Assembly: GCA_964016885.1 (NCBI GenBank)
Contig: OZ024756.1
Coordinates: 6,076,001 to 6,140,000, forward strand
Reading direction: 5' to 3'
Length of the DNA stretch: 64,000 bases
Source of the DNA: Eledone cirrhosa
Lineage: Eukaryota
This document shows positions 5,072 through 59,502 of the stretch, one piece after another (the first letter of the stretch is position 1; each line of letters begins with the position of its first letter). The notes beneath the pieces were generated by a model, which did not search any database, had not been told where the DNA came from, and worked only from the letters and a program-made list of their open reading frames with translations. The position numbers and the translations under genes are program-made.

Positions 5072-5166
5072 CTCGTCTCACTCATATATATATATATATA
5101 TAATATTATATATAGAGAGAGAGAGAGAGAGATTGCAATAATCAAAGTTCAGTTTAAAATCATTAT

Positions 5167-5215
5167 TTGCTTACAATTGTTTCCTCCAAACCGAGGTTTG
5201 GATTCTTCGGAGCAA
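5167..5215 (-). ncRNA. Hammerhead with CCGAAGA core (family G)
   Basis: Reverse complement of 5832-5880. Confidence 0.7.
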
Positions 5216-5831
5216 CCTATTTAGTGATCTATAACATACTTGACTCTCCTTTTTAACGCAAGAGACATATAAAACATATGCACATATTGATCCACATGTT
5301 CTATATATTGCGTCTCATGGATTATGTGAGTGGTGGTGTGCCGCGAAGACAGTGGTAATGTTTTGCCTACGATACTAATATGGTTTATAATATAGTTTGA
5401 AATTTTAGATATTTTGGTGTTTCTCCACATTCGGGACTGTATATCATACAGGTGTATGCGAATAAATGATTTAATAATTCAGCCCACATAAGTAATATCG
5501 ATTGCCTGCTTCAACTGCCTGACCCCTGCAAATAACATTCTGACGCACTCTAATCCTGTAAAAATAAGACACGCGTGCATTGCTACACGTGAGATTGTTT
5601 CATACACTGACTACTCTAAACTTTTCCTCTTGCTTTATCTTCATAGACTGCCAATGCTTTCATTTTTATTTTCATTTTTATTATTATTTTTATCCTTTAA
5701 CCATTATATGTAAATTGCCATGCTATATCATTTTGATGGATGTCATCCCACTGTGGATCAATATGTGCATATGTTTTTATATGTCTCTTGTGTTGAAAAG
5801 GAGGTCAAGTATGTTACAGATCACTAAATAG

Positions 5832-5880
5832 TTGCTCCGAAGAATCCAAACCTCGGTTTGGAGGAAACAATTGTAAGCAA
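5832..5880 (+). ncRNA. Hammerhead with CCGAAGA core (family G)
   Basis: ttgct-CCGAAGA-a-tccaaacc(tc)ggtttgga-g-GAAA-caattg-TA-agcaa. Confidence 0.75.
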
Positions 5881-6161
5881 ATAAATGATTTAGAACTGAA
5901 CTTTGATTATTGTAATCTCTATATAACTGCTCTGTAAAGCAACCGATGTTATTACATTGAGCTATTTATCTTACTGGTAATAAGATAGTAATTAATGACT
6001 ATCTTTCACTATTTAAGGTTTGTATAAAAAATATTTTACCATAAAAGGTTTTATTACATACATAACCATAAATAGTATCCTTAATACTATATATATATAT
6101 ATATAAAATAAAATAAAATAAAATAAATAAGTCAAATGTTTAAAATTTGGCTTCGTTTATT

Positions 6162-6217
6162 ACTGCTATAAAATATTTCGGTGGCAGCCATCTTTGGCTG
6201 TGACCTCTTCAGACAGT
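6162..6217 (-). ncRNA. Type I hammerhead ribozyme (family H)
   Basis: Minus strand actgt-CTGAAGA-ggtcacagcc(aaagat)ggctgccacc-GAAA-tatttta-TA-gcagt. Confidence 0.8.
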
Positions 6218-6568
6218 CCGAATTAGTGTGGTATAGACAAGTACATATGTTGTTGAGGTGTATAATTTTGTCAATACTCTGATATGCCCAGATCCTAGTT
6301 GGGTTGTTATTTCACTGAGAAACTGGAATCATATATAACATGATTCCAGTTCCTCAGTAAAATAACAACCCAACCAGGAACTGGGCATATCAGAGTATTG
6401 ACAAAGTTCCTCAGTGAAATAACAACCCAACCAGGAACTGGGCATATCAGAGTATTGACAAAGTTGCTCAGTGAAATAACAACCCAACTAGGAACTGGGC
6501 ATATCAGAGTATTGACAATATTATACACCTCGACAACATGTGTACTTGTCTCTACCACACTAATTCGG

Positions 6569-6617
6569 ACTGCCTGAAGAGGTCACAGCCAAAGATGGCT
6601 GTCACCGAAATAGCAGT
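6569..6617 (+). ncRNA. Hammerhead with stem III deleted (family H)
   Basis: actgc-CTGAAGA-ggtcacagcc..ggctgtcacc-GAAA-TA-gcagt. Confidence 0.6.
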
Positions 6618-6936
6618 AATAAACGAAGCCAAATTTTAATCATTTGACTTATTTATTTTATTTTATTTTATTTTAAATTACTCCGGAGTAACCAAACCAA
6701 CCTGCGCACATCGTCGAGTGCTCCAATCTGCATACTGAGGCGTTGGTATACAACCAACATATACTAAAAAAAAAAAAAAAAAATAAAAAAAAAATATATA
6801 TATATATATATATAGTAATAATAACAACTGTGAAGACTAAAATCCAAAGAGGCCGCGAACGGGATCTTCTGAAACTATTTCAGAAGATCCGTTAAGAGTG
6901 AAAGCTGTGATTCTTTGCTTAAACTTTAATCTGTTA

Positions 6937-6999: not shown

Positions 7000-7037
<38 letters not shown>

Positions 7038-7078
7038 ACGACATTAATAAATGGAAACTATATTTATAAAACCAGATT

Positions 7079-7142
7079 TATTTTATTATATATATTTCAA
7101 GAGCACCAAAAAAACTTTGCTACGCTCTCATCAGTTAAAATA
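7079..7142 (-). ncRNA. Hammerhead ribozyme (family D), within element ~7036-7417
   Basis: Minus strand CTGATGA-gagcgtagcaaag...ttggtgctctt-GAAA-tatata-TA-ataaaata. Confidence 0.7.
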
Positions 7143-7412
7143 CAAAATTTATTTTATAAATAGTGACATACCCGATAAACCAATCCGCATCGGTTCAGAT
7201 TCAATTTGGATAGTGAAAGAAAAAGAAAACATTCAAATCATTTAGGATGTATATGCAAATGAAGTAGAAGCGTACACTGTAAAAATCGTTATATATAGAC
7301 GCTAGGTAAATTTAAATAATTATTAGGATACTTTATAAAAGATTTTGTTGAATTACCAGCAAATTAAATATCACTTTGCTTATATATTGGCAATATGACC
7401 GTCCCAGAGTAT

Positions 7413-12156: not shown

Positions 12157-12560
12157 GGAGGACAAATATTTATTATTCACACAGCTTAAAAGTTTAAGAA
12201 ATTTCTGCTGACACCCCAAAGCGTGTTCTTCTGAAATATACACACACACACACACACATATGTATATATACATACATACATATATATATATATATACAAA
12301 TATACACCCACACACATATATATATGTATATATATATATATAGAGAGAGAGATTAATAAATAGATTAATAAATAGATTAATGTATTTATATATATATATA
12401 TATATATATATTGTTATACTTTGGGAGGGTCATGTTGCCAATAAGAAACACACACACCAGTTGCTTTCACTTCAACTTATTATAATAAATTCATAAATTT
12501 AGTAATTTATACATTTCTGGTTGGTTGGTTGGTTCCACAACCAGATAGTTGTTTATATAT

Positions 12561-12605
12561 TGTCAAAGTTCTTTCGTCACACATTCGTTGACCTCTTCAG
12601 TGACA
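12561..12605 (-). ncRNA. Type I hammerhead ribozyme (family K)
   Basis: Minus strand tgtca-CTGAAGA-ggtcaacgaatgtgtgac-GAAA-gaac-TT-tgaca. Confidence 0.75.
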
Positions 12606-12671
12606 GGGGATTCTTTTCTTTGTTTTTGTGCCTCTCCTTTGTTCTGTCCTACGCCATTTTGTTTCTGTGTG

Positions 12672-12716
12672 TGTCACTGAAGAGGTCACAGAATGTGTGA
12701 CGAAAGAACTTTGACA
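12672..12716 (+). ncRNA. Type I hammerhead ribozyme (family K)
   Basis: tgtca-CTGAAGA-g-gtcaca(gaatg)tgtgac-GAAA-gaac-TT-tgaca. Confidence 0.8.
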
Positions 12717-12923
12717 ATATATAAACAACTATCTGGTTGTGGAACCAACCAACCAACCAGAAATTTATAAATTCCTAAATTTATAAATTTATTATAATAA
12801 ATTGAAGTGAAAACGACTGGTGCGTGTGTTACTTATTGGCAACATGACCCTCCCAAAGTATAACAATATCGGTTTCAACACACGATTTCAGATAAAGAAT
12901 CTTGCTAAACAAATTCAGAAACG

Positions 12924-13022
<99 letters not shown>

Positions 13023-14879
13023 CATTAATCTATTTACTATTTTTGTGAAAGGAATATAAAACAATAATATAATGTAAAAATTGCAGGTTGATACAATAAT
13101 TGAAAATATCTTGAAACACAAGAGATTGCGTCTAGGATGGTTGGCACCACATTCTGCGTTCTAAAACCTCATTTCTTAACTGATGCCCTACAAAATGTAG
13201 TTGATATCTTGTAGATACTAAAGCTGATTCATTGTTCTGATGGAAAGATTACTTTCAGTACGCGTGATGTGACAATCTGATAAATTTCAAGGACGTAACT
13301 ACTGAACAATTTATGACAAAAGTTAATACTAAAAAATCTTCTAGGTACAAGCGAACTGAACCCGTGAATTGGTAGCGTTTGTATCAGGTTTGAAAATTAA
13401 ATTCTATAAAAAGACATTTTAAATATATCTAAGTTTATCATAGAACGTCATTGAAATGTTTCTTGAGCCCGGCCGACTAAATGGCGACTTTATTATCCCG
13501 TGAGGCGCCCTGAAAGAGCCAATTCACTCCCTGGGGCTTGTTCTTGCGTATTGCCGTCTCAATTCAGATTTAAATGAGTAGAGAGCTTTGTCGAGATCCA
13601 ATAACTATACACTCATATATACGTGCGCATGTTGAGATAATTGTGTGTGTATCTGTATGTATATATATATAGATCAGTTCCTGCCCATATATATTCAGAT
13701 TTCATTCTATGCAAAAAACGTCCGCTATTAAAATATGAGGGCCCAATACTAATTTGAATTGACTACAACTAATTTTAAATCTGAAATACCAAAGTAACGG
13801 TATTTCTGTATTGTAGGTCTCATACAACATGGGGTGATTATATTATGGCCGATATTTAAACGGGGAAGGAAGGTATATAGAGAGGCAAGTTGCTTGATGT
13901 TTACGTTTTAGTCCGAATAGGAAAGGTATCCCTATATAACCATCCCGACCCAACTGTCCCACCACTAACACCACTAGCTCCACTACCACCACCATCGTGT
14001 ATCCAAGACTGGTGAATGGAGTGTGGTTGTTAGCCCGAGAGCTCACAAGAAAGTGGACTCGTCTAGAGACATCTACACCCAGAGCAGTTGGTTTGTTTTA
14101 CAGGTGTAAATATATATCCGTCCTTTTGTACCGTTACCTATTCATCTCAAAACCATCCGAGTGGCATGCTACCAAATATATTATTGTTTCTAACTTTGGC
14201 TTAAGACCAACAATATTTTTATCGACCTCAATACTTAGCTGATATTAATTTATAGACAATGGAAGCATGAAAACTAAAGTTAACCTCGATGGTATTCGAA
14301 CCCAGAACGTAAGAACGTAATGAAACGGAACATATTCTACTAAGAATTCATCCAACGATGTAACTCTTTAGAAACTTGGTTACTATGATTACCAATTATC
14401 GTTAGAATAAATTGAATTGAAGCTAGAGATCAATTCGAATATGTTAGAATAGTTATCACAAGCAGACTTGGGTTGAATACAACCAATAAATCAATAAAAC
14501 TGACCTTATGTTCTTCATTTACCAAAGAATATATCGATATAAAAGGATTTTATTAGGAAGAAGAACATTGAGTGTATAGAGCAAAACAGCAGTTTGCTAA
14601 ATAAACAGTTTACAGGAAATATAATTGAGATATAATGTGCAAATATATTTGATTCGATACAATCGATTTAACAAAGTCGTTAGAAGATCGAATAAAACCT
14701 ATTGCAATATTCTGGCTGCAATAGCTTTACTTTCAAATACCACCGAGACTTATTTTGCCTTTCATCCTTCCTAGGTCGATAAAGAAAGTTCTAGTTTAAT
14801 GATGTTCCAAGCCACACTTTATTTTTCAATATCACATTCTATGTGTTCAGCTGTATCAAGTTTTCGAATTGGAATGATA

Positions 14880-17350: not shown

Positions 17351-17440
<90 letters not shown>

Positions 17441-17444
17441 TATA

Positions 17445-17580
17445 GGAACAAGTAAGGCCCCGACGGCTGAGCTCAAGCCGTTTAGGGGTCTTACATGTTC
17501 CTATTACCCACTCTACTACCCTAAGTATTGAGTACTTTGGTGCGTTATGGTCCACCTGGTTCCTTACCATATTTCCTTCG

Positions 17581-17582
<2 letters not shown>
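17445..17582. mobile_element. (TA)n-inserted fold-back element, family L
   Basis: Shared with 48383-48470, 48622-48842, 54211-54425, 56559-56724 and diverged 26954-27060; hairpin gacggctgagctcaagccgtt. Confidence 0.75.
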
Positions 17583-17639
<57 letters not shown>

Positions 17640-17734
17640 CAATAATAATAAAGATACTATTTATAGTTATGTATATACTATACTATAAATAAATATAAAC
17701 AGGAAAGGTCAGTAATTATATGTACAAACATTGA

Positions 17735-17788
17735 TAATGCTCCGATGACTCCAAACTGAAGATTGGAAGAAACAATTGTCAGCAATTA
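17735..17788 (+). ncRNA. Hammerhead with CCGATGA core (diverged family G)
   Basis: taatgct-CCGATGA-ctccaa(actgaaga)ttggaa-GAAA-caattg-TC-agcaatta. Confidence 0.7.
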
Positions 17789-18977
17789 AATGATTTGAAC
17801 ATAACTTTGATACTTGTGTAATTTATATATATATATATGTATCTATATATATATAATGTTTCAAATTGACCCAAACTTCTGACTGAAATTGGATAGACGT
17901 GGATTATGTAGAAGCCTTTCAAATGGACTCACCGTGTACCTCAATGTTGTAAGACTAAGTACCTCGCTGAGTTTCTGTCAAATTCTGAGCTAGTTGTATG
18001 GTAATTTCATGAGCAAGTTGTTCCGTTGATCAACCAATTAGAACATTTATTGCAAATGAGAGGGAGATCCGTTTCATCAATATAACAATAAAAAACATCT
18101 ACATTATTTGAGCCTTCCATTTCTCTCTCCTATCTTTCTCACTCACCCACTCTCTCTATCTATCTATCTCTCACTGTAACCCTCCATAATTAAAAAAAGA
18201 ACAAGACTATTTGAGGCTTCTCTCCCAATCTTTCTCTCTCCCTATCTATCTATCAATCTATCTCCCACTCACTCTCTTTCTCACTCTTTCTCCCTCTTTC
18301 TCTTTTTCTCTCTGTATTTAAAAAGGAAACAAGATTCTGTGAGAATTCCATGTCTCTCTCCCAAGTCCTCTCTCTTCCCCCTGTCTCTCTATCCCCCACC
18401 ATCTCTCTCTCTCTTTCTAACGATAACCCTCCACAAATAAAAAGAATAAGATACTCTGAGCCTTTCAATGTCTCTCTCCCTACGCTCATTCTTTCTCTCT
18501 TCCTCTCTCTCTCTCTATCTCCCCTCCCTCTCTCTCTCATCCTCCATAATTAAAGAAAACCATTATTTCCGTAACATTAAAGAATTCCTTGAGATTGATT
18601 TAAATGTAATTCTCTTAATGATCTAATTCGGAAACAAAAGAAAAATATGTTAATTTTTCAGTAAAATTTAAAAATACAAAAAATAGAGAAGATTAAATCT
18701 AAGAATGTTGAAGAAATCGCTGGAGGAAGTCACTGGGATATATTAGCATGGCTGAGCCAGAAAACTGATGCCTTCAAGCATTACTAAAACAAAATTGAAT
18801 ATGTTTGCATGTCGTTTTGTTACGTTGTTGAACCACACAGTCATATACATATATATACATACACTCACATATATATATACATATATATACATACACTCAT
18901 ATATTTATATACATATATATACATACACTCATATATTTATATACATATATATACATACACTCACACATATATATATA

Positions 18978-20684: not shown

Positions 20685-20824
20685 TATGCAACTTAGTACT
20701 TAATATATTTTTTCAATTTCTCATTTGCTATCAAGACGGTGAAAGCTTAACCACAGGACCGAATATATATAACCATATATATATACATATATACGTATAT
20801 ATATATATATATATATATATATAC

Positions 20825-20876
<52 letters not shown>

Positions 20877-21016
20877 GATAACAACATATCGGTATATGTA
20901 ATCCAATTAGAGCTTGTAAATACTTCTTATTATGGATAGTTTTAGCATACGGTGTTGCGTGAGTCAACAAAGTGGAGAGTAACATGGTCAACAGTACAAA
21001 AAAGGGGATTTATTTG

Positions 21017-21103
21017 CAGTCTAACAATTGTTTCACTGAACACTAAAAACAGTGCCAGTCAATTTTAAACACGATGTTAACTCTATTCGATCATCAGAAA
21101 CTG
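21017..21103 (-). ncRNA. Hammerhead in PLE pseudo-LTR with expanded stem II region
   Basis: cagttt-CTGATGA-56 nt-GAAA-caattg-TT-agactg. Confidence 0.65.
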
Positions 21104-21776
21104 TTAAAAAAATATATATGTAACCGGCAAATTTACAAATTCAAATTACATCATCAATAATAATATTAATAATAAAGATATAGAGAGAAAAGGAGGAAGA
21201 ACAGGAGATAGATACAGTAAAGAAAGAAAGGAAAGGAAGGAGAAAGAAGAAGAAAAGGGGAAATTATTATAGATAGAAATATAAAGAGAGGAAGATATAT
21301 AGATGAGAGACAAACATAGGTAAGAATAAGGTAGGATAGAGAGAAGAGGAGAAAATAATAGAGTGACAAATAGATGAATAAACATCAATTCATGAATAAA
21401 TGTAAATAAAAATAAAAATAGATATATAAAAATATATGAAAAAAATGGTGAACATATGATAATGTTAAATATAGTTATGTGTGTATTGGTTATTTTAATA
21501 AATAAATAAACTAATTAGTTATAAGTTATATTATATGATAAAATAAAATGACAGAGATAAAATAAATTCAGGGAGAGATATATTAAGATAAAGAGTGAAA
21601 AATAGAGATATATATAATAAGAATGTAAATATAAGAGGTTTTGATCTTGTTCTTTGATAGATGATGACAATTATAATTATAATTATAATTATAATGATGA
21701 TGATGATAATGTTGATAATGTTATATCATAATAGATCCAAATGGTATAATCTGGGTTATGGAATAGATAGATGGAA

Positions 21777-22269
21777 TTAAGCTGGTCTAAATCTCTCAAA
21801 TTTAGTCGCCGATTTATGTCGACAAAAAATGTTTTTTTCAATTTTACTGTTAAGAAGAATTTTGTTGTAATTTAAAATTTGGAAAAGTTCCATATTACAA
21901 TGACTACAGTGGGACATACCAATTTGATAGGCCTTTACTTGTGATAGCTTTGTCCAGTTGATTTTATATTCCATGTTTGCATCTTTAAGTTGCCAGCTTT
22001 TATTGGCGAGAGTCGTTGTCTTTGAGAGATTCCTGTTAGTCATAGAGAGTCTATGTACATACAACCTTTTCTTACACTCCCCAGCTGTGGAACCAATGAT
22101 AATGCCATGGTAAGCTACCTGAATGTATAGTACATAGGTATACTATATTTGTCTCTAGTCATCTGTTTTGTAAAGGGCATTTGTCATGTAGATGGCAGTT
22201 ACGTTTAGATGCTTTTCTATGCGCCGCTTCTTCTAATATGCTTTTGTAGGCAATTTTAGACAACTCTAT
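21777..22269 (-). pseudogene. GIY-YIG endonuclease remnant of a Penelope-like element
   Basis: RNCHLHDKCPLQNR*LETNIVY..(frameshift)..IGSTAGECKKRLYVH..WQLK..YKINW..CSHCNME..LLNSKIE..CRHK; one TGA and one frameshift. Confidence 0.85.
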
Positions 22270-22388
22270 CAGTGAAACAATTGTTAGTCTGCAAATAAAT
22301 CCACTTTTTTGTACTGTTGACCATGTTATTCTGAACTTTTTCAATTATATATATATATACATATACATACATATATATATATATACAT

Positions 22389-22483
<95 letters not shown>

Positions 22484-23000
22484 TTTATATATATATATGT
22501 ATACATATATATATACACACATATATATACATATATATACATACATACATACATACCTATAAATATATACATATATATATATATATACATACATATATAT
22601 ATACATATATATACATATACATACATATATATACATATATATACATACATACATATATATACATATATAAACAGACATAAATACATATATATACATATAT
22701 ATACATACATGCATATATATATATATATATATATATATAGATACATACATATATATATATATATATATACATGTATATATGTATGTACATGTATATATGT
22801 ATGTATGTATATATTTATATATATATATGTATATATATATGTATGTACATATAGATATGCATACATATATACCTACATATATAAATACATATATATATAT
22901 ATATATACATACATATATACATATATATACATATATAAATACATATATATATATATATATATATATACATACATATATACATACATATATATATATATAT

Positions 23001-23047
<47 letters not shown>

Positions 23048-23081
23048 CATATATACATACATATATATATATATATATACA

Positions 23082-23171
<90 letters not shown>

Positions 23172-23737
23172 CATATGTATATATACATACATATATACGT
23201 ACATATATACATACATATATATATATATATACATATATATAAATATATACATACATACATATATATATATACATACATATATACATGAACATCCTTACAT
23301 ACACATACATATATATATACATATACATACAGACATATGTATATATATACATATACATACATATATACGTATATATATATATATGCATATACATACATAT
23401 GCATATATACATATACATACATATATATATATAATATATATACATATATATACATATACATATATATATATATAATATATATACATATATATACATATAC
23501 ATATATATACATATATATACATACGGTATACATATGTATATATATACATATGCATACACATATATATATATATACATATGCATACATATATATATACATA
23601 TGCATACATATATATATACATATACATATATAAATATACATATATATATATATATACATATATAAATATACATATATAAATATACATATACATATATATA
23701 AACATATATAAATATACATATATATATACATATATAA

Positions 23738-23800
<63 letters not shown>

Positions 23801-24061
23801 TATAATATAGTGTATGTGTTTTTATACCGATTGATGGAGAGATAGAAAGCTAGACAGATGAGGATATGGAAATAAATAAAACACCAATGTACTTCATGTG
23901 AGAGAATTACAGAAGACTTCGTTCCGTAAGATCCGCCATCTTAATAAATCATATTGACACTTATACTATACCTTCTTCGCTCTAAACCGTTTTTAATGTT
24001 TCTTTCAACAGATAAACCCAGGATTGACTAATATAGCCAAATATACATATCTATATATATA

Positions 24062-24392
24062 TGGTGGCTGCCAACTCGTTTTCGAGTACGGCCACTACAT
24101 TATATCGATGTAGGAGAACCCCTACCGATGCGCTGAACGAGTGTGACTTTTTTGTCCAGCCAGCGACTTGAAAACTCTGGTACAAACACTACACTTGTGA
24201 CCATTATTGACACATAGTGCAGGGCCCATGGTACCATGTGACGACAAGTGCAGAGAGATCTCCAGATATAAGGCAATGCCTGTGCCGTGAAGCTTTTATA
24301 GTGAGCAAAGGCACTGCACAAAGCCAGTCCCACTCTCTTAACCAAGATGATATTTACCAAAAAGAAGAACAAGACAATCTCATTGGATACCA
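24062..24392 (-). mobile_element. RTE-derived non-autonomous element, 5'-truncated
   Basis: Matches the 3' part of 44781-45399. Confidence 0.8.
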
Positions 24393-24479
24393 TATGTATA
24401 TATATATATATATATATATACCATATATATACATGGTGGCTGCCAACTCGTTTACGGCCACTACTTTATATAGTAATAT

Positions 24480-27717: not shown

Positions 27718-28065
27718 TTAAGTATTGGCTGAAAAATATTGCTCTCATTAATTACATGAATATTAATAAATGTAAACGTGAATGTTTTGTATATAAATAA
27801 AAAAATGTAGAAAAATGTAGAAAAATGTCGAGCATTTGCGAGGGTGACTAATTGGGAATCCATCTTGAGACACGTCTGCCTCTTAACAAAATCTCATTAT
27901 TAAAACGTATAAGCATTAAATTGACCTCATAAAATATTAATTACCGTTGCTCGATATATAGAAATATATTGCTAAGTATTGCATTGAAATATTCTTACTT
28001 ATATACACACACTCCACATACTACATACATAGTACAAATCTGATATATATATATATACATACACA

Positions 28066-28554
28066 TGGTGGCTGCCAACTCGTTTTCGAGTACGGCCACT
28101 ACTTTATATCGATGTAGGAAAACCCCTACCTATGCGCTGAACGAGTGTGACTTTTTAGTCCAGCCAGCGACTTGAAAACTCTGGTACAAACACTACACTT
28201 GTGACAATTATTGACACATAGTGCTGGGCCCATGGTACCATGTGACGACAAGTGCAGAGAGATCTCCAGATATAAAGCAATGCCTTTGCCGTGAAGCTTT
28301 TATAGTGAGCAAAGGCACTGCACAAAGCCAGTCCCACTCTCTTAACCAAGATGATATTTACCAAAAAGAAGAACAAGTCAACATCAGTGAATACCATCAG
28401 GGTTGCATGTGTTATATCAGAGTTCTCCTTCTCCTAGAATTCTGCCTTGACAAAGGCTAAGGGGTCATCTCTCCTGTGATTTTGGATGGGCATTGAATCT
28501 TAAGAGCTCCATATGCCCTTTGACAGGTTTTGTTTTTAGTCCTGCAGGATGTCC
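28066..28554 (-). mobile_element. RTE-derived non-autonomous element, 5'-truncated
   Basis: Matches ~44913-45399; diverged relative at ~25445-25780. Confidence 0.8.
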
Positions 28555-28570
28555 ACATACATACATACAT

Positions 28571-31345: not shown

Positions 31346-31638
31346 CTAATAGGTGTCAGCCCCGCGAGTTGGAGTGGCTTTTCCAGCGCGTCTCCCTTGC
31401 CGTCCTCCGCCTTCTCCATTTGGTCCGCGGGAGCTGTAGGGGGACAGTCCGATTATATTATGAATTCTGTTGAATAGTCTTAAATACTGAAGCCTCCTGC
31501 TTAAGTTAATAGAAACATGCAATATGATTGACCCCAGAATCTCAATATTATGAAGCGATATTCTTAATAATTTGGATATCGGTTTGCGAGATCTTTCATT
31601 ATTTTTCATACAGTATTCAGTAAAGTTGCTATACTTAC

Positions 31639-31776
31639 CACATTTTGCACGTCCTTCCGATGATTCGTCCGAATAATCTCCACAATGGTTTATTCTATCA
31701 CATATAAGATCATTATCAATGCACCAATTGTTATTACAACGGAAGGCTGAGCCACAACTAGCTTGAGTCTTGGAAA
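31639..31776 (-). CDS. Internal exon encoding one LDL-receptor class A (LDLa) module
   Basis: SKTQASCGSAFRCNNNWCIDNDLICDRINHCGDYSDESSEGRAKC: six Cys plus DxSDE; acceptor ctaat..tttcttttctgaacttccag|, donor |gtaagt; 138 bp, phase 1-1. Confidence 0.9.
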
Positions 31777-32184
31777 CTGGAAGTTCAGAAAAGAAATAAA
31801 TTAGCATTAATAATATTTTTAATTCTTTTTAAAATGGGAACAAGGTCAAACAATTTAGAATAAGGGTAGATAATGTTATCCCCAATATTTTACTGCTAGT
31901 TATTGTATTGGTCTCGCTTGGGGATCGAACCGGATCGGTTGGAGAAGGTTGCTTCTGACAGGACCTGTTGGAAGGAGTTTTTGAGAACTCTGTCCTTTTG
32001 ACCTTCTCAAGAAGAAGAAGAAGAAGAAGAAGAAGAAGAAGAAGAAGAAGAAGATGAAGAGTTTATTTTATTATCCAAGAAGGATAGAATAAAATCCAAA
32101 GTTGACCCCATCAGGACAGAATCTCAGATCGTAGAAAGTCTTGACTAAATGCCGCTCTACTCATACTACAATGTTGTCTGACGT

Positions 32185-36364: not shown

Positions 36365-37880
36365 CATGCTGAAGTAAACTGTCACAAACGCGTATTCAAC
36401 GTTTAACAGATGCAAGTTCAAACTTAAACAACAGACATACAACAGGCAAGTACTTACTTACACTTGTTTGCCACATAACTACACAAAGACACAGTCACAC
36501 ACCCACACACACGCACACACACACTCAAACATACACATACACACATATACACTCAAACACACACACGTGCAGACACACAGAGAAGAAAGCACAGCCAGAC
36601 ACCCTAGCATGCAAACTAGACATATCACACATTCAGGCAAATATAAACCCACGCTCACTCACACAGAACGATTTCTATTTGCCAGGGATCAGACGATAGC
36701 AAAGCCAATTGCATACGCCTACAATGATCATAGAGGGTTGTGTAAAGAGTGGAGTTAACACACATGAACACACACACACATATACATGCTTAGAGATACA
36801 TACATACATAGACATATACATACTTACATGAAAGACATAATACATAGACATATACATACTTACATGAAAGGCATACATACATAGACATATACATACTTAC
36901 ATGGAAGACATAATACAAAGTACACAAATACATACGTACGTACATATATACATACACACAAACATACATATACATGCATGCATGAAAGACATACATACAT
37001 ACACAACTAGTTAGGAAATTACAAGTACAATCCATTAATGGAACTGTAAAAATATGTGAAACATTCCAAAAATGTTGCATCTAATAACTGCATATACACA
37101 TACACAGATACAAAGCATATACACATGCACACATACAACTCAAAACATACACATCCACATATACAATAACATCCATATATACACATGCATACATACATAT
37201 CTACCTAGTTGATGTTGTGTAAATTCTAATGAGAGAGTCTTGTGTCTATGTTAGAAACCGACTCTCTCTCTATTGGGAAAAAAATTGTGAAATTATAAAA
37301 CTAGAAGATCATACATGCATACATACATGTGTACAGGTATATACATAAGTATATACACATATACATACACATGCATATATATACAGACGTACATATAAAC
37401 ATATATACATACATAGATACGTACATACACACAAACGTAAATGATGCATACATACATACATTAAGTATACACACACACACACATATATATATCTATATAT
37501 ATATATATATACATATAAATACGTACATAAGTACAAGCATGTATACATACATATATACACATATATATATTTGTATTATATATACATATATATATATATA
37601 TATATACATATATATAAACACATCCACACATACAATAACATCCATATCTACACATGCATACATACATATCTACCTAGATGATGTTGGGTAAATTCCAATG
37701 AGAGAGTCTTGTGTGTATGTTAGAAACCGACTCTCTCTATTGGGAACAAATTTGTGAAATTATAAAACCAGAAAAACAGACATACATACACACACATACA
37801 TACATATCTATCTATCTATCTATCTATACATACATACATACATACATACATACATACATACATACATACATACATACATA

Positions 37881-38588
37881 CTCCCTACCAAATATCTGCT
37901 GCACAAAAGAGGAGGGCCAGCAGCTGACAATAAATGTAGGCTATGTAATACAAAGATCGAGGATGTAAGCCACATTGTTGCCAGCTGCGAAAGAATGTCA
38001 TCTCGCTACTACCTCCCCATGAGACACGATGGGATAGCTAGAACTATCTGGAACGCACTTCGGAAAACAAAATTAACAACAAACGAGGAAGAATATATTG
38101 AGACAGATGGCACTAAGGAATACTGGTGGAACCTGAAAATAAAAACTGCCACCAAATTAAAGCACAACCGGCCTGATATTGTAGTTTGGGACCACACATT
38201 GAAAACGTGTTCTGTTGTGGAGATCAGCTGCCCACTTGATGTAAACGTTGTCAGAAAAATACAAGAGAAGGAGGACATCTACGGACCATTGATGAGGAGC
38301 TTACAAATCCAGTATCCAAGATACACCTTTAGCTTCATACCCATCATTATTGGTGCTACGGGTTATATACCAACCCGCTTGGACCAAAGTATGACCGAAC
38401 TTGGATTTGCGGACAAAAAGCGCAGCTCCCTAATTCATAGTCTACAAATAGCTGCGATAGCTGGCACCTTCAAAATATGCAAAACATTCTTGCGATTCAA
38501 GGGATGACAATTTCTTTTCTTTTACAACCTTGCCACCAGGAAGGTGGCCGGTCAAAAAAATATACTCGAAATTAAGAGAAAGAGAAAA
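37881..38588 (+). mobile_element. 5'-truncated R4/Dong-like non-LTR retrotransposon (zinc knuckle plus restriction-like endonuclease)
   Basis: Open frame 37881-38507: KCRLCNTKIEDVSHIVASC (CCHC), RHD, NRPDIVV..VEISCP, EKEDIY, PIIIGATG; (TACA)n on both sides. Confidence 0.9.
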
Positions 38589-38770
38589 CATACATACATA
38601 CATACATACATACATATCTATACATACATACATACATATATACATACATGCTTACATACATAGACATACATACGTACGTACATATATATATATATATAAA
38701 TACATACATACATATATATATGGACACATAGATACATACATAGATATACAAACATACTTCCATAAAAGAC

Positions 38771-38815
<45 letters not shown>

Positions 38816-39065
38816 CATACATGCTTACATACATAAAATACATACTTGTGGACGTAGTACCATCTAAACCCCTTCATATATTCACAGAGAAATATAGGCT
38901 GTGAAACTAACATTTAAACTCGTCAACAGAAACACACACTAACATACCTATACATACTTTCGTGAAATTCATACATACATACGGACGTACATACGTACGT
39001 ACGTATATACATACATATATACACACATACATACATAGATACACATTCATACTTCCATGAAAGAC

Positions 39066-39106
<41 letters not shown>

Positions 39107-39109
<3 letters not shown>

Positions 39110-39700
39110 TGGCTGCCAACTCGTTTTCGAGTACGGCCACTACTTTATATCCATCTAGGGGAACCCTACCGATGCGCTGAACGCGTGTGACTTTTTAGTC
39201 CAGCCAGCGATTTGAAAACTCTGGTTGTGACAATTATTGACACATAGTGCTGGGCCCATGGTACCATCTGACGACAAGTGCAGAGAGATCTCCAGATATA
39301 AAGCAATGCCTGTGACGTGAAGCTTTTATAGTGAGCAAAGGCACTGCACAAAGCCAGTCCCACTCTCTTAACCAAGATGATATTTACCAAAAAGAAGAAC
39401 AAGTCAACATCATTGGATACCATCAGGGTTGCAGGTGTTATATCAGAGTTCTCCTTCTCCTAGAATTCTGCCTTGACAAAGGCTAAGGGGTCATCTCTCC
39501 CGGTGATTTTGGATGGCCATTGACTCTTAAGAGCTCCTTTGCCCTTTGACAGGTTTTGTTTTTAGTCCTGCAGGATGTCCAAAGTGACCCTCCTCACCAA
39601 GAAACCTTGGTGGGGTTGACAGTTTAGTCGCCAACGACCCGACCATGGGACAGGTTGTACTGGGATACATGTTACCACTAGCACCAACTGGTGACCTGAC
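39107..39700 (-). mobile_element. Full-length RTE-derived non-autonomous element
   Basis: Reverse complement of 44781-45399 with the same 5' start gtcaggtcacc. Confidence 0.85.
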
Positions 39701-39813
39701 ATATATACATATATACATACATGCTTACATACATAGACATACATACGTACGTACATACATATATACATGCACACACACATACATAGATATACATACATAC
39801 TTCCATGAAAGAC

Positions 39814-39920
<107 letters not shown>

Positions 39921-40131
39921 CATACATGCTTACATACATAAAATACATACTTGTGGACGTAGTACCATCTAAACCCCTTGATATATTCACAGAGAAATAT
40001 CGGCTGTGAAACTAACATTTAAACTCGTCAACAGAAACACACACTAACATACCTACACAAATATATTTATACTTTAAATTCCAACACATACACACTTTAC
40101 ACAGCCACATAGGCATAAAGCCTCATACACA

Positions 40132-42008: not shown

Positions 42009-42068
<60 letters not shown>

Positions 42069-42201
42069 CAAAGGTATATTTAATTTTTCGTAATTCAGAA
42101 AATATATATATTTTTAACAGATTCGAAGAACTCGACTGGTTTTCTGGTGTATAATATCAATGATATTAATGAATGGAAAACTATATTTATAAAACCATAT
42201 T

Positions 42202-42262
42202 TATTCTATTATATATATTTCAAGGGTACCAAAACTTTGGTACGCTCTCATCAGATAAAATA
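42202..42262 (-). ncRNA. Type I hammerhead ribozyme (family D)
   Basis: Minus strand tattttat-CTGATGA-gagcgtaccaaagttttggtaccctt-GAAA-tatata-TA-atagaata. Confidence 0.85.
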
Positions 42263-42379
42263 CAAAGCTTGTTTTATAAATATTGACATATCCAGGAATG
42301 AGACCTTAACTATCCAGGTAAAACTCGAACCGTTAACGTCTCATTCCTGGATATGACTATATTTATAAAACAAGCTTTG

Positions 42380-42440
42380 TATTTTATCTGATGAGAGTGT
42401 ACCAAAGTTTTGGTACCCTTGAAATATATATAATAGAATA
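42380..42440 (+). ncRNA. Type I hammerhead ribozyme (family D)
   Basis: tattttat-CTGATGA-gagtgtaccaaa(g)ttttggtaccctt-GAAA-tatata-TA-atagaata. Confidence 0.85.
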
Positions 42441-43556
42441 AATATGGTTTTATAAATATAGTTTCCATTTATTAATATCATTGATACATATATATATATA
42501 TAAGAAATCGATCTATGATCTTCATTTATTGAGTACGAATAAATGAAAGTATATTTGGATTTGGTTTGATTTTTACTAAGTGTGCCAAACTGTGAACAAT
42601 AACCGCAAGCATTAATCCCGCCAAGGTTAACTTTGCCTTTCATCCTTACGGGGTCGATAAAATAAAGTACCAGTAATGCACTGAATAATTGCTGGCCTTG
42701 TGCCTAACGTAGAAACAATTATTATCCGTCGCTCTAACGACTCTTCCAATAGCTGCCATGGTAAAGCTAAGATTGAAGGTGATCCAGTCTTAAATATCAT
42801 ATCACCTTTTCAGGTAAGGTATATCTCAGATTTAATCACCAAATTGTGTCCTTTATCTCTGAATGCAGGCGGCAAATAGGCAGAATCGAATAGAATACTT
42901 TACGGTATTCATTCCGACTCTCTGCTGTCGGAGTTCAAATCCAGCCGAGGTCAACTTTGCCTGCTTTCGTGATCAATAAAAAAAGTACCAGTCTAGTACT
43001 GGGGTTGATTCTTCCTCTATATCTCTTTCTCATTTCCCCTCTCTCACTTTGTATCTTTCTCTGGAAGAGAGGGATGGACTCCACCAGGCTTAAAATGGCC
43101 AAGAAACGCCGTATGTCAATACATCGCCTCTAATACTCTATCAGGAGTTAGGGCGAAAAGAAAGATCTCTGAAGGCGGAAGAGTGCAATTTTAAGGAAAT
43201 ATAACTGCTATTTCTGTTAGGTCAAATGACTATGTTAAAGGCTCCATTATGGATCTAGTTAAGTTTGTTGAAAGGTAACGTAACTGGTTCTGATTTGTTA
43301 GTTTACTGTGAGTGTTGCTTCAAGTTCTCTCTCATTCTCCCTCCATCTTTCTCACACTCACTCCCTCTTTCACTCCCTCCCGCTTTTTCACGCTCTCTCC
43401 CTCTCCGTCTTTCTCACTCTCTCTCTCTCACTCCCTACGTCTTTCTCATGCTGTCTCTCTCTCTTACTCCCCCGTATTTCCACGCTCTCCCTCTCACTCA
43501 CCGTCTGTCTCACACTCCCCTCTCTCTCTCTCTCTCTCACTCACCGTCTCTCTAAC

Positions 43557-44511: not shown

Positions 44512-44582
<71 letters not shown>

Positions 44583-44736
44583 ATATATGTGTATATATAT
44601 ATATATATGTATATGTATATATATGTGTATATATATGTATATATATGTGTATATATATATATATATGTATATGTATATATATGTGTATATATATATATAT
44701 ATGTATATGTATATATATGTATATATATATGTATAT

Positions 44737-44768
<32 letters not shown>

Positions 44769-44780
44769 GTATATATATAT

Positions 44781-45399
44781 GTCAGGTCACCAGTTGGTCA
44801 CCAGTTGGTGCTACTGGTAACATGTATCCCAGTACAACCTGTCTCATGGTCGGGTCGTTGGCGACTAAACTGGCAACCCCACCAAGGTTTCTTGGTGAGG
44901 AGGGTGACTTTGGACATCCTGCAGGACTAAAAACAAGACCTGTCAAAGGGCAAAGGAGCTCTTAAGAGTCAATGGCCATCCAAAATCACAGGGAGAGATG
45001 ACCCCTTAGCCTTTGTCAAGGCAGAATTCTAGGAGAAGGAAAACTCTGATATAACACCTGCAACCCTGATGGTATCCAATGATGTTGACTTGTTCTTCTT
45101 TTTGGTAAATATCATCTTGGTTAAGAGAGTGGGACTGGCTTTGTGCAGTGCCTTTGCTCACTATAAAAGCTTCACGGCACAGGCACTACTTTATATCTGG
45201 AGATATCTCTGCACTTGTCATCACATGTACCATGGGCCCAGCACTATATGTCAATAATGGTCACAAGTGGGGTGTTTGTGCCAGAGTTTTCAAGTCGCTG
45301 GCTGGACTAAAAAGTCACACTCGTTCAGCGCATCGGTAGGGGTTCTCCTACATGGATATAAAGTAGTGGCCGTACTCGAAAACGAGTTGGCAGCCACCA
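44781..45399 (+). mobile_element. Full-length bipartite RTE-derived non-autonomous retroelement (~620 bp)
   Basis: RTE-type 5'UTR motif ctaggagaaggaaaactctga; 3' part encodes a C2H2 remnant [19 protein letters not shown]; terminal stem-loop gtggc..ctcgaaaacgag..gccac; sits in TA-rich microsatellite. Confidence 0.75.
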
Positions 45400-45487
45400 T
45401 ATGTATGTATACATATATATGTATATATATATATATATATGTGTATATATATATATATGTATATATATATATACATATATATATTTG

Positions 45488-45520
<33 letters not shown>

Positions 45521-45553
45521 GTATATATATGTATGTATATATATGTATATATG

Positions 45554-45584
<31 letters not shown>

Positions 45585-45651
45585 GTATATATATATATGT
45601 ATATGTGTATATATATATATATGTGTGTATATATATATATATATATGTATG

Positions 45652-45684
<33 letters not shown>

Positions 45685-45835
45685 ATATGTATATATGTAT
45701 GTGTATGTATATCTATATATATGTATATGTATATGTATATATATGTATATATATATATATGTATATATATATATGTATATGTATGTATATATATATGTAT
45801 ATATATATATATATATGTGTATATATATATATATG

Positions 45836-45867
<32 letters not shown>

Positions 45868-46039
45868 TATGTATATGTATATATATGTATATGTATATAT
45901 ATGTATATATATATATATGTATATATGTATATATATATATATATATATGTATATGTATATATATGTATATATATACATATGTATATATATATATATATAT
46001 GTATATGTATATATGTATATATATATATATATGTATATG

Positions 46040-47352: not shown

Positions 47353-47735
47353 AGGGCGGTGGATTGGCAGTATCTGTAGAGGGTCGGACGCCATGCTTTC
47401 CAGAATAGTTACGTCCCTTTACTATCTGAGTTCAAATCCCGCCGAGATTGACTTTGCCTCTCATCCTTACGGGGTCGATAAAATAAAGTACCAGTAATGT
47501 ACTGGGTATTTGTTGGCCTTGTGCCAAAAGTAAAAACAATTATTAAAGGGTGGTGGCTAGGCAGTATCGGTAGAGGGTCGGACGCCATGTTTTCCAGCAT
47601 AGTTACGTCCCTTTACGATCTGAGTTCAAATCCCGCCGAGGTTGACTTTGCCTTTCATCCTTACGGGGTCGATAAAATAAAGTACCAGTAATGCACTGGG
47701 TAATTGCTGGCCTTGTGCCTAAAGTAGAAACAGTT
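47353..47735 (+). mobile_element. Two tandem tRNA-derived SINEs
   Basis: A-box tggcagtatc(t/g)g, B-box gagttcaaatc, shared core; another copy at 53338-53525. Confidence 0.85.
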
Positions 47736-47899
47736 ATATCGTTATATAGTTAACTTCAGTAGCATAGATTTGTCTTATATAACAGAGGTCGCCTCTGAAG
47801 CTACATTGTATAACTCTGGCAATTATATTACGTAACTAGAATATAAACGAATAAAATAGACCACATTTTTCTTTTACTTCTTCTTCTTCTACTTTTTCT

Positions 47900-48150: not shown

Positions 48151-48545
48151 ATTTTATTCATTGCTTTTATTATTTTCAGTAATTAGACTTTAAGCATGCT
48201 AGGGCACCAACTGCAATTAATTTTGAAAATGATATCGACCCTGGCGTATATTGGGTTTTGGTCTATATTTTATTAATAACTATTTACCAAATCGCTGCAT
48301 TAAGTGACTTGAACAAAGAGAAAACGAAAACTCAAACACACATATATATACATACATGCATACATATATATATATATATATATAACGAAGGAGGTGTGGT
48401 AAGGAACCAGATGGACCACAACGCACCAGAGTACTCAATACTTAGGGTAGTAGAGTGGGTAATAGGAAAATATTATACAGAGAGAGAGTGAGAGAGAGAT
48501 TCCCGAGTTGTGACGGGAAGTAACTACTGTTTAACATGGTACTCA

Positions 48546-48621
<76 letters not shown>

Positions 48622-48623
<2 letters not shown>

Positions 48624-48838
48624 CGGAGGAAATGTGGTAAGGAACCAGGTGGACCATAACGCACCAAAGTACTCAATACTTATGGTAGTAGAGTGGGTAA
48701 TAGGAACGAGTAGGAACCCGACGGCTGAGCTCAAGCCGTTTCGACGGCTAATTCTGGACTGAAAAAAAAAATTTTTTTTTTAGTCCTGAATTAGCCGTCG
48801 AAACGGCTTGAGCTCAGCCGTCGGGTTCCTACTCGTTC

Positions 48839-48842
<4 letters not shown>
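48622..48842. mobile_element. Fold-back element, family L
   Basis: Arms ~48700-48770 / 48771-48842; (TA)n flanks. Confidence 0.75.
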
Positions 48843-48890
<48 letters not shown>

Positions 48891-53607: not shown

Positions 53608-53659
<52 letters not shown>

Positions 53660-53668
<9 letters not shown>

Positions 53669-54090
53669 AGATCAAAAGATGGTTAAAGGAGTTCCATGTA
53701 TTTTATTATGCGCATTTCAAAAACAAACATCATCATGCAATAATATTTGTGTTTTCATCAGATAAAACAGGAGAACATGATATGAAGGCTAAAAAACACT
53801 TGTGGATAGTGCAGTTTTAAATCAACATAGCTGATGTGTTGATTTAAAACTGCACTATCCACAAGTGTTTTTTAGCCTTCATATCATGTTCTCCTGTTTT
53901 ATCTGATGAAAACACAAATATTATTGCATGATGATGTTTGTTTTTGAAATGCGCATAATAAAATACATGGAACTCCTTTAACCATCTTTTGATCTTATAT
54001 TATGTATACTCCAGTCCTACAAACTGTAGAGTGCTTCTTATCCGATATCTGCATTGCTTTATTGTACTACAATAAAACTCACCTCCTACA
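53660..54090. mobile_element. Fold-back hammerhead element, family C (essentially perfect ~170-bp arms)
   Basis: 53660-53828 vs 53837-54003, loop agctgatg; hammerheads at 53699-53769 (-) and 53895-53965 (+). Confidence 0.85.
53895..53965 (+). ncRNA. Type I hammerhead ribozyme (family C); mirror copy at 53699-53769 (-)
   Basis: tgttttat-CTGATGA-aaacacaaatattattgcatgatgatgtttgttttt-GAAA-tgcgca-TA-ataaaata. Confidence 0.85.
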
Positions 54091-54163
54091 TATATATATA
54101 TATATATATACACAGATATATAAGCGTATTATATACATACACACACATATGTAGGCTTATTAT

Positions 54164-54205
<42 letters not shown>

Positions 54206-55270
54206 TATAAAACGAAGGAAGTGTGGTAAGGTACCACGTGGACCATAACGCACTAGAGTACTCAATACTTTAGGTGGGTAATAGGAAAATGTTCAAGACC
54301 CCGACGGCAGAGCTCAAGCCGTTTTGACGGCTATTTCTGGATTTTCTGGACGGCTTTGACTGGTCCAAAAATAGCCGTCGAAACGGCTTCAAGCTCTGCC
54401 GGCGGGGGTCTTGAACATTTTCCTATATATATATATATATATATGTGCGTGTGCGTGTGCGTGTGCGTGTGCGCGCGTGTGTGTGTGTGTGTGTGTGTGT
54501 TGTTTTCTCTGATATATAGTGTTCCGGTCTTAAGAGGACTGGACTCCACCAGTTCTCTACGTCTGTATCAGGTGTTAAGGGCCCAGGACCATGGACATAT
54601 AGCTAAAGCAGTTCATCAATTGTGTATATTTTAAATTTCAATACACCCTGTCACAGATCATGATAATTACCAATAACTACAAATCCGAATTTAAGATCCA
54701 TTATACTTAGATTAGTCAATATATTTTATTTCAATAATTTAGTATTTTAGTCTCCTAAATATAATTAACATAACATTGAAAACTATATTGAAAATAAACC
54801 CAAACTGAATTATTAAACATAGCTAATAATTATTAATTAGTGGTTGACTTAAATAGATTTTAGACTATTATAAAATACAATAATGTATATGTATGTGAGG
54901 AAATACTTGATTATGCATATATAATTAGTACATATTTTAATGATCACATGAATGAATTCAATATAATTTTAATTAGTCTTATGTAAATTAGTACATCTCC
55001 CAGTTTGTGTCTTTCAATAACTATTTCTCTCTAAATCCCTGAATGTATCTGTTTAAGTATCTATGTGTCTCTGTGTAGCCGCACTTTGTTATAAAGAAAG
55101 TGAATGGGAATTAGCAGTAGGAATATATTGTTTAATGTAAAATATACTTCATAATGTGTACCAAGAACTGGCATGACATGTAAATTCTTTATTTACAGAA
55201 CATTGACTTTATTTGCATAGAAATGTTTCATTCGATTGAGCCCGGGACTCATTCACACACACTATATATA

Positions 55271-55853
55271 CAGGGTTGTCCAAAAAGATGTATCTATTGA
55301 AACGAAAACTTTACAATTTTTTACATAGACCTGTCTTACAGCCATGTAAGTTTTGTGTGATGTAAGTTTTTTCCTCGCATACCACCATTTTGCGAGCACA
55401 GCTCAATAGTTTATAATGTGCTCGATCCAAGCTGCTTGGCGCTGAATCACTGTGGTACTCGCACATTGAAGTATGTGATGTGATGTGATGTAGTAATTTT
55501 CTGTCCTGACTGACCGTGGCCGGCCACTGCAACCTTTAATGTTATCCTGTACACCTCCTTCTCTCTGGAAAGTCCCTCCGAAATTGTCGTTGTGTTTGGA
55601 CAACCAGACTCAGTCAGGACAGAAAATCACATCACATCACATCACAAACTTTAATGTGCGAGTAGCCACAGTGATTCAGCGCCAAGGAGCTTGGATCGAG
55701 CACATTATAAACTATTGAACTGTGCTCGCAAAATGGTGGTATGCAAAACTTACATGGCTGTAAGACAGGTCTATGAAAACAAATTATAAAATTTTCATTT
55801 CAATAGAAAATGCTACTTTATCAAAAATGGATACATCATTTTAGACCACCCTG
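55271..55853. mobile_element. Tc1/mariner-type MITE with long subterminal inverted repeats
   Basis: TA|cagggttgtccaaaaagatgtatc ... gatacatcattttagaccaccctg|TA; ~55295-55515 is inverted relative to ~55610-55806. Confidence 0.85.
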
Positions 55854-55879
55854 TATATATATATCCATTTTAAATAAAT

Positions 55880-55952
55880 TTTCTTTCTGACGAACGATTC
55901 CAGACGTCTGTGTCTAGCTCGTCTGTCTTCGTGAAACCTTTGGTAAATGGAA
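55880..55952 (+). ncRNA. Type I hammerhead ribozyme (solo, separate family)
   Basis: tttcttt-CTGACGA-acga..cagacg(loop)cgtctg..tcgt-GAAA-cc(ttt)gg-TA-aatggaa. Confidence 0.75.
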
Positions 55953-56336
55953 TAATTGTCTTATGTTATTTATTACATAACTATATATATATGCATGTGG
56001 AAAGAAAAAAATATATATATACAGTATTTCCCCGGGAGTTACGTTCCTAGAGCACTAGCGAAGAGTGAGAAATCGCGAATGTTGGACGTGATCCATAAAA
56101 GTGTCTAAAATCGTCAAAACATAACTTAAAATATATGACGGCAAATACGCTATATTAGCATGAATAATTTAGCATTAAAAAGCATGAAAAATTATATATT
56201 GCCATGAAAGAAGCCATAAGAATATCGCGAAAAATATCTACGACTCAGCGAATATGCGTTGGTTTCCACGAACGATTATTAGTTAGGTTCTAAGAAAATT
56301 CCGTGAATGGCGCGGTCGTGAATGTCGGAATTAGCC

Positions 56337-56485: not shown

Positions 56486-56528
56486 TACTTGATCACACGA
56501 ATGTCTATTTTTGTTAATATTCTGAATT

Positions 56529-56559
<31 letters not shown>

Positions 56560-56733
56560 GGAACCAGTAAGACCCCGACGGCTGAGCTCAAGCCGTTTCG
56601 ACGGCTAACGGCTTGAGCTCAGCCGTCGGGGTCTTACTGGTTCCTATTACCCACTCTACTACCCTAAGTATTGAGTACTTTGGTGCGTTATGGTCCACCT
56701 GGTTCCTTACCACATTTCCTTCGTTATATATAT

Positions 56734-57226: not shown

Positions 57227-57372
57227 TTCAATGATATTAAATAAATGGAAACTATAGTTATAAAATTATATTTATTCTATTAAATACCTTAACGGTTCAA
57301 GTTTTCCAAGGAAAACTTGAACTGTTAAGGTATTTTTTCTTGTTTATGTCAAAATTTATAAAACAAATTTTG

Positions 57373-57434
57373 TATTTTATCTAATGAAAGCGTACCAAAG
57401 TGTTGGTACCCTTGAAAATATATATAATAGAATA
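57373..57434 (+). ncRNA. Hammerhead, core-mutated copy (family D), within fold-back 57224-57572
   Basis: tattttat-CTAATGA-aagcgtaccaa..ttggtaccctt-GAAA-atatata-TA-atagaata. Confidence 0.6.
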
Positions 57435-57570
57435 AAGATGGTTTTATAAATGTAGTTTCCATTTATTTAATATCATTGAATATTATACTCCACAAAAGAT
57501 GTCGAGTGCTCTCAATCAGTTATAAACATTTATATTTGTTGAATTACCAACACATTGAATACCCCTTTTG

Positions 57571-57635
<65 letters not shown>

Positions 57636-59435: not shown

Positions 59436-59440
<5 letters not shown>
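58340..59440. mobile_element. Long fold-back hammerhead element, family C
   Basis: ~375-bp arms 58340-58716 / 58962-59348; hammerheads at 58376-58446 (-) and 59242-59312 (+). Confidence 0.85.
59242..59312 (+). ncRNA. Type I hammerhead ribozyme (family C); mirror copy at 58376-58446 (-)
   Basis: tgttttat-CTGATGA-stem II-GAAA-tgcgca-TA-ataaaata. Confidence 0.85.

Positions 59441-59502
<62 letters not shown>

Follow-up and report, generated by a model that had tools for sequence, protein, structure and literature searches.

A decayed GIY-YIG retroelement in an octopod genome, very probably a 5'-truncated PLE copy of the Hydra clade

A 64,000-nucleotide stretch of octopod DNA (hereafter the window) very probably carries the remains of a Penelope-like element (PLE), a 5'-truncated, dead copy from a multicopy family of the Hydra clade. 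The element lies on the minus strand, running from 22343 to 20875, and is flanked on both sides by (TA)n tracts; the copy has no RT and is unable to move itself. Taken alone it is of little weight, because 190 PLE families together account for 6.83% of the genome of Octopus vulgaris, according to the supplement of PMC13282606, and a Hydra family, Hydra-1_Obim, is already listed for Octopus bimaculoides in PMC8557442. It represents a new family of a known clade, which the O. vulgaris repeat library (PMC13282606) may already hold; an extension of the clade's host range was considered and rejected, octopods being known hosts already. Its interest is that it connects one hammerhead in the window with a coding PLE, so that the ORF-less fold-back islands are most simply explained as shorter inverted PLE insertions. 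The octopod host is indicated by an exon at 31637-31786 (minus), which encodes an LDL-receptor class A domain 91% identical to an O. vulgaris LRP12-like protein, and an LRP12-like gene may contain or neighbour the element. The layout of the element, together with one island used below for comparison, is as follows:

20777..20873, no strand: (TA)n target on the 3' side, from the sequence
20875..20968, minus: 3' tail of ~95 nt, at one end only, the inverted copy being without it
20969..21039, minus: pLTR segment with an inverted repeat of it at the 5' end (93% over 71 nt)
21017..21103, minus: type I hammerhead with a 6-bp stem I, CTGATGA core, GAAA, stem III ACAATTGT (a palindrome) and GUU cleavage triplet
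21098..21776, minus: 3' UTR, pyrimidine-rich and native to the family, from contigs bridging ORF-UTR and UTR-pLTR
21777..22100, minus: GIY-YIG endonuclease (EN), YIG motif through stop codon, in an open frame; contains R, H, E and N as well as Hydra-type CxxC and CxH
22101..22251, minus: linker (decayed CxCx5Cx5C) and IVY (GIY) motif, in a different frame, with one stop and one frame change
22250..22343, plus: pLTR copy, inverted and 5'-truncated, with a 2-nt overlap with the ORF at 22250-22251 (overlap determined by eye); contains the stem II 3' arm, GAAA, stem III, the stem I arm and post-ribozyme sequence
22346..23810, no strand: (TA)n/(TACA)n tract on the 5' side, from the sequence
5128..5920, no strand: island taken as family G, for comparison only, with hammerheads at 5210 (minus) and 5837 (plus); a third copy lies at 17738-17831

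Both structural signatures defined for EN+ PLEs, an inverted 5'-truncated pLTR copy and a one-sided tail, are present, the repeat pairing 22269-22339 with 21039-20969 (71 nt, 93%, E 1e-24). The initial annotation of this DNA had placed a PLE remnant at 20875..22345 and an inverted pLTR half at 22270-22331; the remnant, its (TA)n setting and the inversion stand, with the 5' end moved to 22343 and the start of the inverted copy to near 22250. It had also let the pLTR follow the ORF: a hammerhead-bearing pLTR is indeed found there, separated from the stop codon by a 3' UTR of ~680 nt. The PLE identity derived from the inverted 5' pLTR is supported by homologues, by a fold model and by the repeat comparison.

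The endonuclease frame is open from 22142 to 21777 (minus) and contains IGST (22097), KKR..H, CSHC..E, LN and CRH before a stop at 21777-21779. The NIVY motif (22149-22138) and the linker occupy the frame that precedes it, with a frame change near 22099 between the two. Both the minus-strand GIY-YIG remnant and the ORF end CxxC..E..LN...CRH can thus be read as first annotated. CxxC and CxH flank E and N, and R, H, C, E, N, C and H are invariant across 26 aligned rows. The endonuclease sits at the C-terminus, the stop being followed by UTR and pLTR. In the linker, which reads R-N-C-x5-C-x5-stop, two of four Cys are intact; at the other two positions stand an Arg codon and a stop codon, both of which a single base change would turn into Cys. 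Since Cys is encoded at both of these sites (22203 and 22159) in nearly all sister copies from public sequencing runs, the decayed CxCx5Cx5C motif proposed ahead of the GIY-YIG domain is borne out. A CCHH motif is absent from the window EN (a single Cys lies between IVY and YIG, and a pair of His is missing downstream), as in the Penelope17_HM row. The linker frame, which differs from the query frame, was scored at iE 0.0085 by a Hydra profile, whose EN score is circular, and tblastn aligns it to the linkers of long relatives.

No Pfam family matched the window ORF. A structure model of the EN built from 101 sequences (pLDDT 86.7) was aligned by VIA-align with four nucleases at the top, I-TevI (Z 9.2, rmsd 2.4, 87 aligned) being followed by EndoII (Z 7.0) and UvrC (Z 5.4), whereas Foldseek returned no match at E<=0.001 (best E 0.53) with T4 EndoII and I-TevI as its top rows. 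As modelled, the fold of the ORF is GIY-YIG. The absence of a GIY-YIG HMM match, from which the initial annotation would have concluded against a coding PLE remnant, is too strict a standard: Pfam misses this ORF, and among the 29 long relatives it matches just two, with weak scores, yet the predicted fold is that of the family.

A full phmmer scan yielded 835 homologous proteins at E<=0.001, the best only ~40% identical. Among the matches listed, the full CxxC-E-N-E-CxH pattern occurs in 127 of 150, and 51 of the 58 that could be scored lack a Cys in the stretch from GIY to YIG. All long homologues are RT-EN proteins with a C-terminal EN. The 29 proteins longer than 600 aa carry DK[TS] (27), DKG (one), YRDD (25), Y[VA]DD (none), KDHK (28) and CxCx5C (19); these motifs match the Hydra rows of Figs S2/S7, which counts for the Hydra clade. 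One long relative, P0023, has 37 relatives of its own, one of them from Argonauta, and the top seven Foldseek matches of its structure model are telomerase RTs (E 1e-7); a telomerase-like RT in the same ORF is seen in relatives at 35% identity. Pfam RVT_1 matched only one of the 29 long proteins, PDB sequence searches gave no RT and no GIY-YIG but weak unrelated rows, and 0 of 134 candidates survived when longer relatives were sought with a word-based method. In a quick tree of 66 rows, an unfinished run with no non-Hydra outgroup and a long window branch, the window EN groups with the RT-EN proteins P0023, P0151 and P0154 (SH-aLRT 94). By eye, it aligns with the Hydra rows of Figs S2/S7 and not with the rows of other clades.

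The Hydra clade, as characterized in PMC8557442, is defined by a C-terminal EN that lacks CCHH and has CxxC and CxH, by a CxCx5C linker and DKT, and by hammerheads and (TA)n targets; its RTs display RWK, DKT and a divergent RT4, and its elements are short (<3 kb). At the level of sequence, the window copy has every EN-side feature, and the RT-side ones are found in the long relatives. The tentative assignment to this clade in the initial annotation is hence strengthened, the Cys pattern, the missing CCHH, the motifs of the long relatives and the rows of Figs S2/S7 being in agreement; the proposed (TA)n target, although present on both flanks, is a weak criterion by itself, the window being TA-rich. 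Judging from the relatives, the parent would encode a single RT-EN protein of ~700-800 aa, and an ORF of 2.1-2.4 kb plus a 3' end of 0.9 kb would by estimate reach or pass 3 kb. No second Hydra-profile remnant was found in six frames of the 64-kb window below iE 0.2.

In the account of PMC8557442, Hydra elements likewise combine a CxCx5C linker, no CCHH and CxxC and CxH around E/N with a hammerhead after the ORF, an AC..GT stem III and a (TA)n target, and an inverted 5' copy is listed there for the family Penelope-13_HM; Hydra-1_Obim, compared by eye, has a different hammerhead and EN. The ENs of Penelope/Poseidon, Neptune, Nematis and Naiad contain the CCHH that the element lacks. Naiad (Naiad_Obim, Naiad_Ovul) also resides in octopus, targets (TA)n and has inverted 5' copies, but is described with an N-terminal CCHH-bearing EN and no canonical hammerhead (PMC8557442), whereas the EN of the element ends its ORF. 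Poseidon PAc of Anolis, as reported in PMC11167929, is similarly an RT-EN PLE with a pLTR hammerhead, a tail at one end and an AT-rich target, yet it belongs to another clade, has CCHH and no linker finger, and carries a tail of 30-40 bp. PAc has been tested in vitro and Hydra elements have not, in the literature consulted (PMC11167929, PMC8557442). The mostly open-access literature searched holds no description of the element family or of octopus hammerhead islands.

The hammerhead core at 21097 is accompanied by stems I and III, and the motif occurs in 0 of 1000 shuffles of the element; Rfam reports no hammerhead in the window or in the element. Since the hammerhead-shaped fold (-11.8 kcal/mol) lies 5 kcal/mol above the minimum (-16.9 kcal/mol) and stem II is split, this copy of the ribozyme is probably inactive. 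Stem II measures 56 nt here. For the arm in 22250-22343 and the segment 21058-21090 the computed pairing energy is -17.2 kcal/mol (as good in 1 of 1000 shuffles), which suggests a stem II of ~79 nt in sister copies. The scanned reference set comprises 77 Hydra-type loci, 68 of which include the EN end and 33 a hammerhead; all 33 have an AC..GT stem III, a stop-to-core distance of -4 to 356 nt and a stem II of 10-25 nt. With a UTR of ~680 nt (679: T 339, A 186, C 126, G 28) against at most 356 and its long stem II, the window family is an outlier in both lengths. With a covariance model from 26 Hydra hammerheads the element reaches a score of 17.6 bits (E 0.029), and the core form CTGATGAT..TGAA is common in Hydra hammerheads (11/33 in the loci scan); covariation in the hammerhead alignment A4 is partly circular, its rows having been chosen by pairing. 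Sequence comparison of the pLTR and of families G and B with the 77 loci gave no match below E 0.03, and inverted repeats were seen in only six of these 77 loci, which are themselves mostly short. Five Hydra loci have a hammerhead upstream of the ORF as well, in a tandem pLTR (L008:197-244, L021:28-75, L026:1427-1476, L043:1-51 and L054:102-157). The element stands out only in its UTR length, in a stem II presumed to measure ~79 nt and in signs that its tail may be shared.

Sister copies were recovered from four of seven listed public runs, possibly of another individual or species, each contig or read covering only a part of the locus. Together, contigs and reads reach 28-30 of the element's 30 bins, at 80-99% likeness. 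The extra base near 22099 is missing in 18/18 raw reads, and at loose ends at 22235 the coding strand continues for ~15 letters beyond 22251 with no stop (by eye). Intact codons, the missing frameshift and continuation past the junction count for a decayed member of a multicopy family. Loose ends at 22254 (25, 34 and 5 contigs) indicate that the inverted copy begins at ~22250, inside stem II, and that the 3' hammerhead copy of the window is without ~22-23 nt of that stem. In run X1 the depth at the pLTR end is ~10x that of the EN, depth being no copy number; in run X5, molecule ends at AATT and CATG, which we take to be restriction enzyme sites, were read as cuts and not as biology.

At ~95 nt the tail is longer than the one-sided PLE tails described in PMC8557442 (30-40 bp). 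In runs X2, X4 and X5 the tail is joined at 20970 to other sequence, which is absent from the 64-kb window, and sister copies have a different tail after 22343. These junctions prompt a tentative and rather unlikely reading, in which an octopod Hydra sub-lineage whose pyrimidine-rich UTR measures ~680 nt and whose stem II measures ~79 nt would use the ~95-nt tail as a swappable RT-start module, non-coding ribozyme families that share the tail being moved by its RT-EN. If true, Hydra PLEs would have a LINE/SINE-like pairing, and the long hairpin would be a habitual stall point that makes fold-back islands; tail sharing would offer a testable case of ribozyme repeats borrowing PLE enzymes. Mobility via PLE enzymes has been proposed for non-LTR retrozymes, whose type I hammerhead repeats, as presented in bioRxiv 10.64898/2026.07.22.740005, are akin to PLE pLTRs; those form tandem arrays, whereas the islands here are inverted pairs and the element is coding.

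The initial annotation had further suggested that the element is related to the autonomous partner mobilizing family G (taken as the fold-back islands 5128-5920 and 17738-17831), which now appears distinctly unlikely. The shared GAAA and stem III on which this was based are real: the exact 11-mer GAAACAATTGT occurs five times in the window against 0.06 expected, twice in the element and three times in family G, and in 0/77 Hydra loci, and GCAAATAAAT is common to the element and one G copy. Family G, moreover, sits in (TA)n/(GA)n and has no coding remnant, as is true of all islands in the window by profile scan; Pfam on 52 of 142 island ORFs detected no RT and no GIY-YIG. However, 7 of the 11 letters of GAAACAATTGT are set by the hammerhead, including the AC..GT found throughout the Hydra hammerheads, and most island families have a palindromic stem III of 8 nt. 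Past stem III the similarity is marginal and uneven, and family B behaves alike: shuffles as good numbered 2, 32 and 65 of 300 for the three G copies and 39 for B, and with 500 shuffles G1 against the inverted copy beats 499, the shuffles as good numbering 88 for G2, 19 for G3 and 13 and 82 for B. Upstream there is no such similarity, and G has neither the stem II nor the tail of the element. The covariance model matches nearly all island families, those at 624, 55879, 42201/42380, 7078 and 6158 as well as or nearly as well as G, and ranks four other families at or above it. Family G may simply consist of short inverted copies of its own PLE, and it is plausible from sequence that the G and B pLTRs are distant kin of that of the element.

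Hammerheads in the window belong to eight or more families, which mostly occur as inverted pairs within (TA)n; in most of them stem III is a short palindrome through which two copies could pair. They lie at 624-671, 268-964; 1088-1516; 1595-1880, 53656-54008, 58330-59500; 1909-2108, 7017-7173, 42012-42502, 57286-57627; 6101-6678; 12260-13025; and 55879-55954. Family B (1088-1516) resembles the element in its 63-nt stem II and one-ended tail; family G has C for U4 in the hammerhead core (CCGANGA) in 3/3 copies (5837, 5210, 17742). An inverted pair with GAAACACGTGTC lies at 4073 (minus) and 4868 (plus), where the scan found no canonical core. The interior of a C-family island (58500-59180) is pyrimidine-rich like the element's UTR, which hints at long PLE UTRs in the genome.

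That the family is an RT-less, endonuclease-only derivative moving in trans is very unlikely: an RT is missing from the 64-kb window and from the short contigs, which extend only ~15 letters past the junction, and most homologue matches are short, but the latter reflects the shortness of the contigs (598-1149 nt in six listed cases), every long relative is an RT-EN protein, and 5' truncation with inversion explains the loss of RT. A chance mosaic of an EN fragment, an AT-rich spacer and a ribozyme island from separate insertions is scarcely credible, for although no contig covers the whole stretch, the UTR is atypically long and depth dips at repeats (21206-21248, 21392-21446, 21658-21723), the inverted repeat encloses the entire unit and contigs cross both the ORF-UTR (21724-21897) and the UTR-pLTR (20980-21149) borders, with variant letters shared across the UTR, which marks it as native to the family.

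The dead PLE copy may owe its structure to the type of priming described for Poseidon PAc, an analogy drawn from another clade. PAc, as described in PMC11167929, cuts AT-rich DNA on both strands and extends both, its RT starting at two sites inside the RNA, by which the tail is defined, and hammerhead cleavage is not required in vitro. By the same route, the endonuclease would cut (TA)n on both strands, and the RT would start at internal sites of the pLTR RNA in two priming events. At one end, ~1.37 kb would be copied, from the tail to 22251; at the other, ~94 nt of pLTR would be copied without the tail, halting inside the long stem II hairpin, and the long and short cDNAs would be joined over 2 nt. 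Later decay would have introduced the stop, the frame change, the lost cysteine and the stem II deletion.

Several other repeats were observed in the window. A ~190-nt SINE-like family (83-96% identical), which presumably resembles cephalopod SINEs, occupies 47353-47740 and about 12 near-full copies, including those at 14882, 15196, 16300, 16601, 17120, 40472, 53341, 61991, 62277 and 63046. A non-LTR retrotransposon remnant at 37851-38504 (plus) matches zf-RVT (E 1e-4) and carries what we take to be a restriction-like endonuclease motif. A fold-back element at 55293-55807 has no Pfam match, and its frames recall, in our view, a Tc1/mariner remnant. The sole Rfam match in the window, Plastid-psbJ-2 at 56502-56641 (66.3 against a cut-off of 65.6), is likely a hairpin artefact; the fold-back repeat family at this site recurs at 17418-17697, 48330-48866 and 54090-54444. 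A dispersed repeat family (81-95% identical) is found at 24041-24471, 28022-28555, 38590-39949 and 44548-45890.
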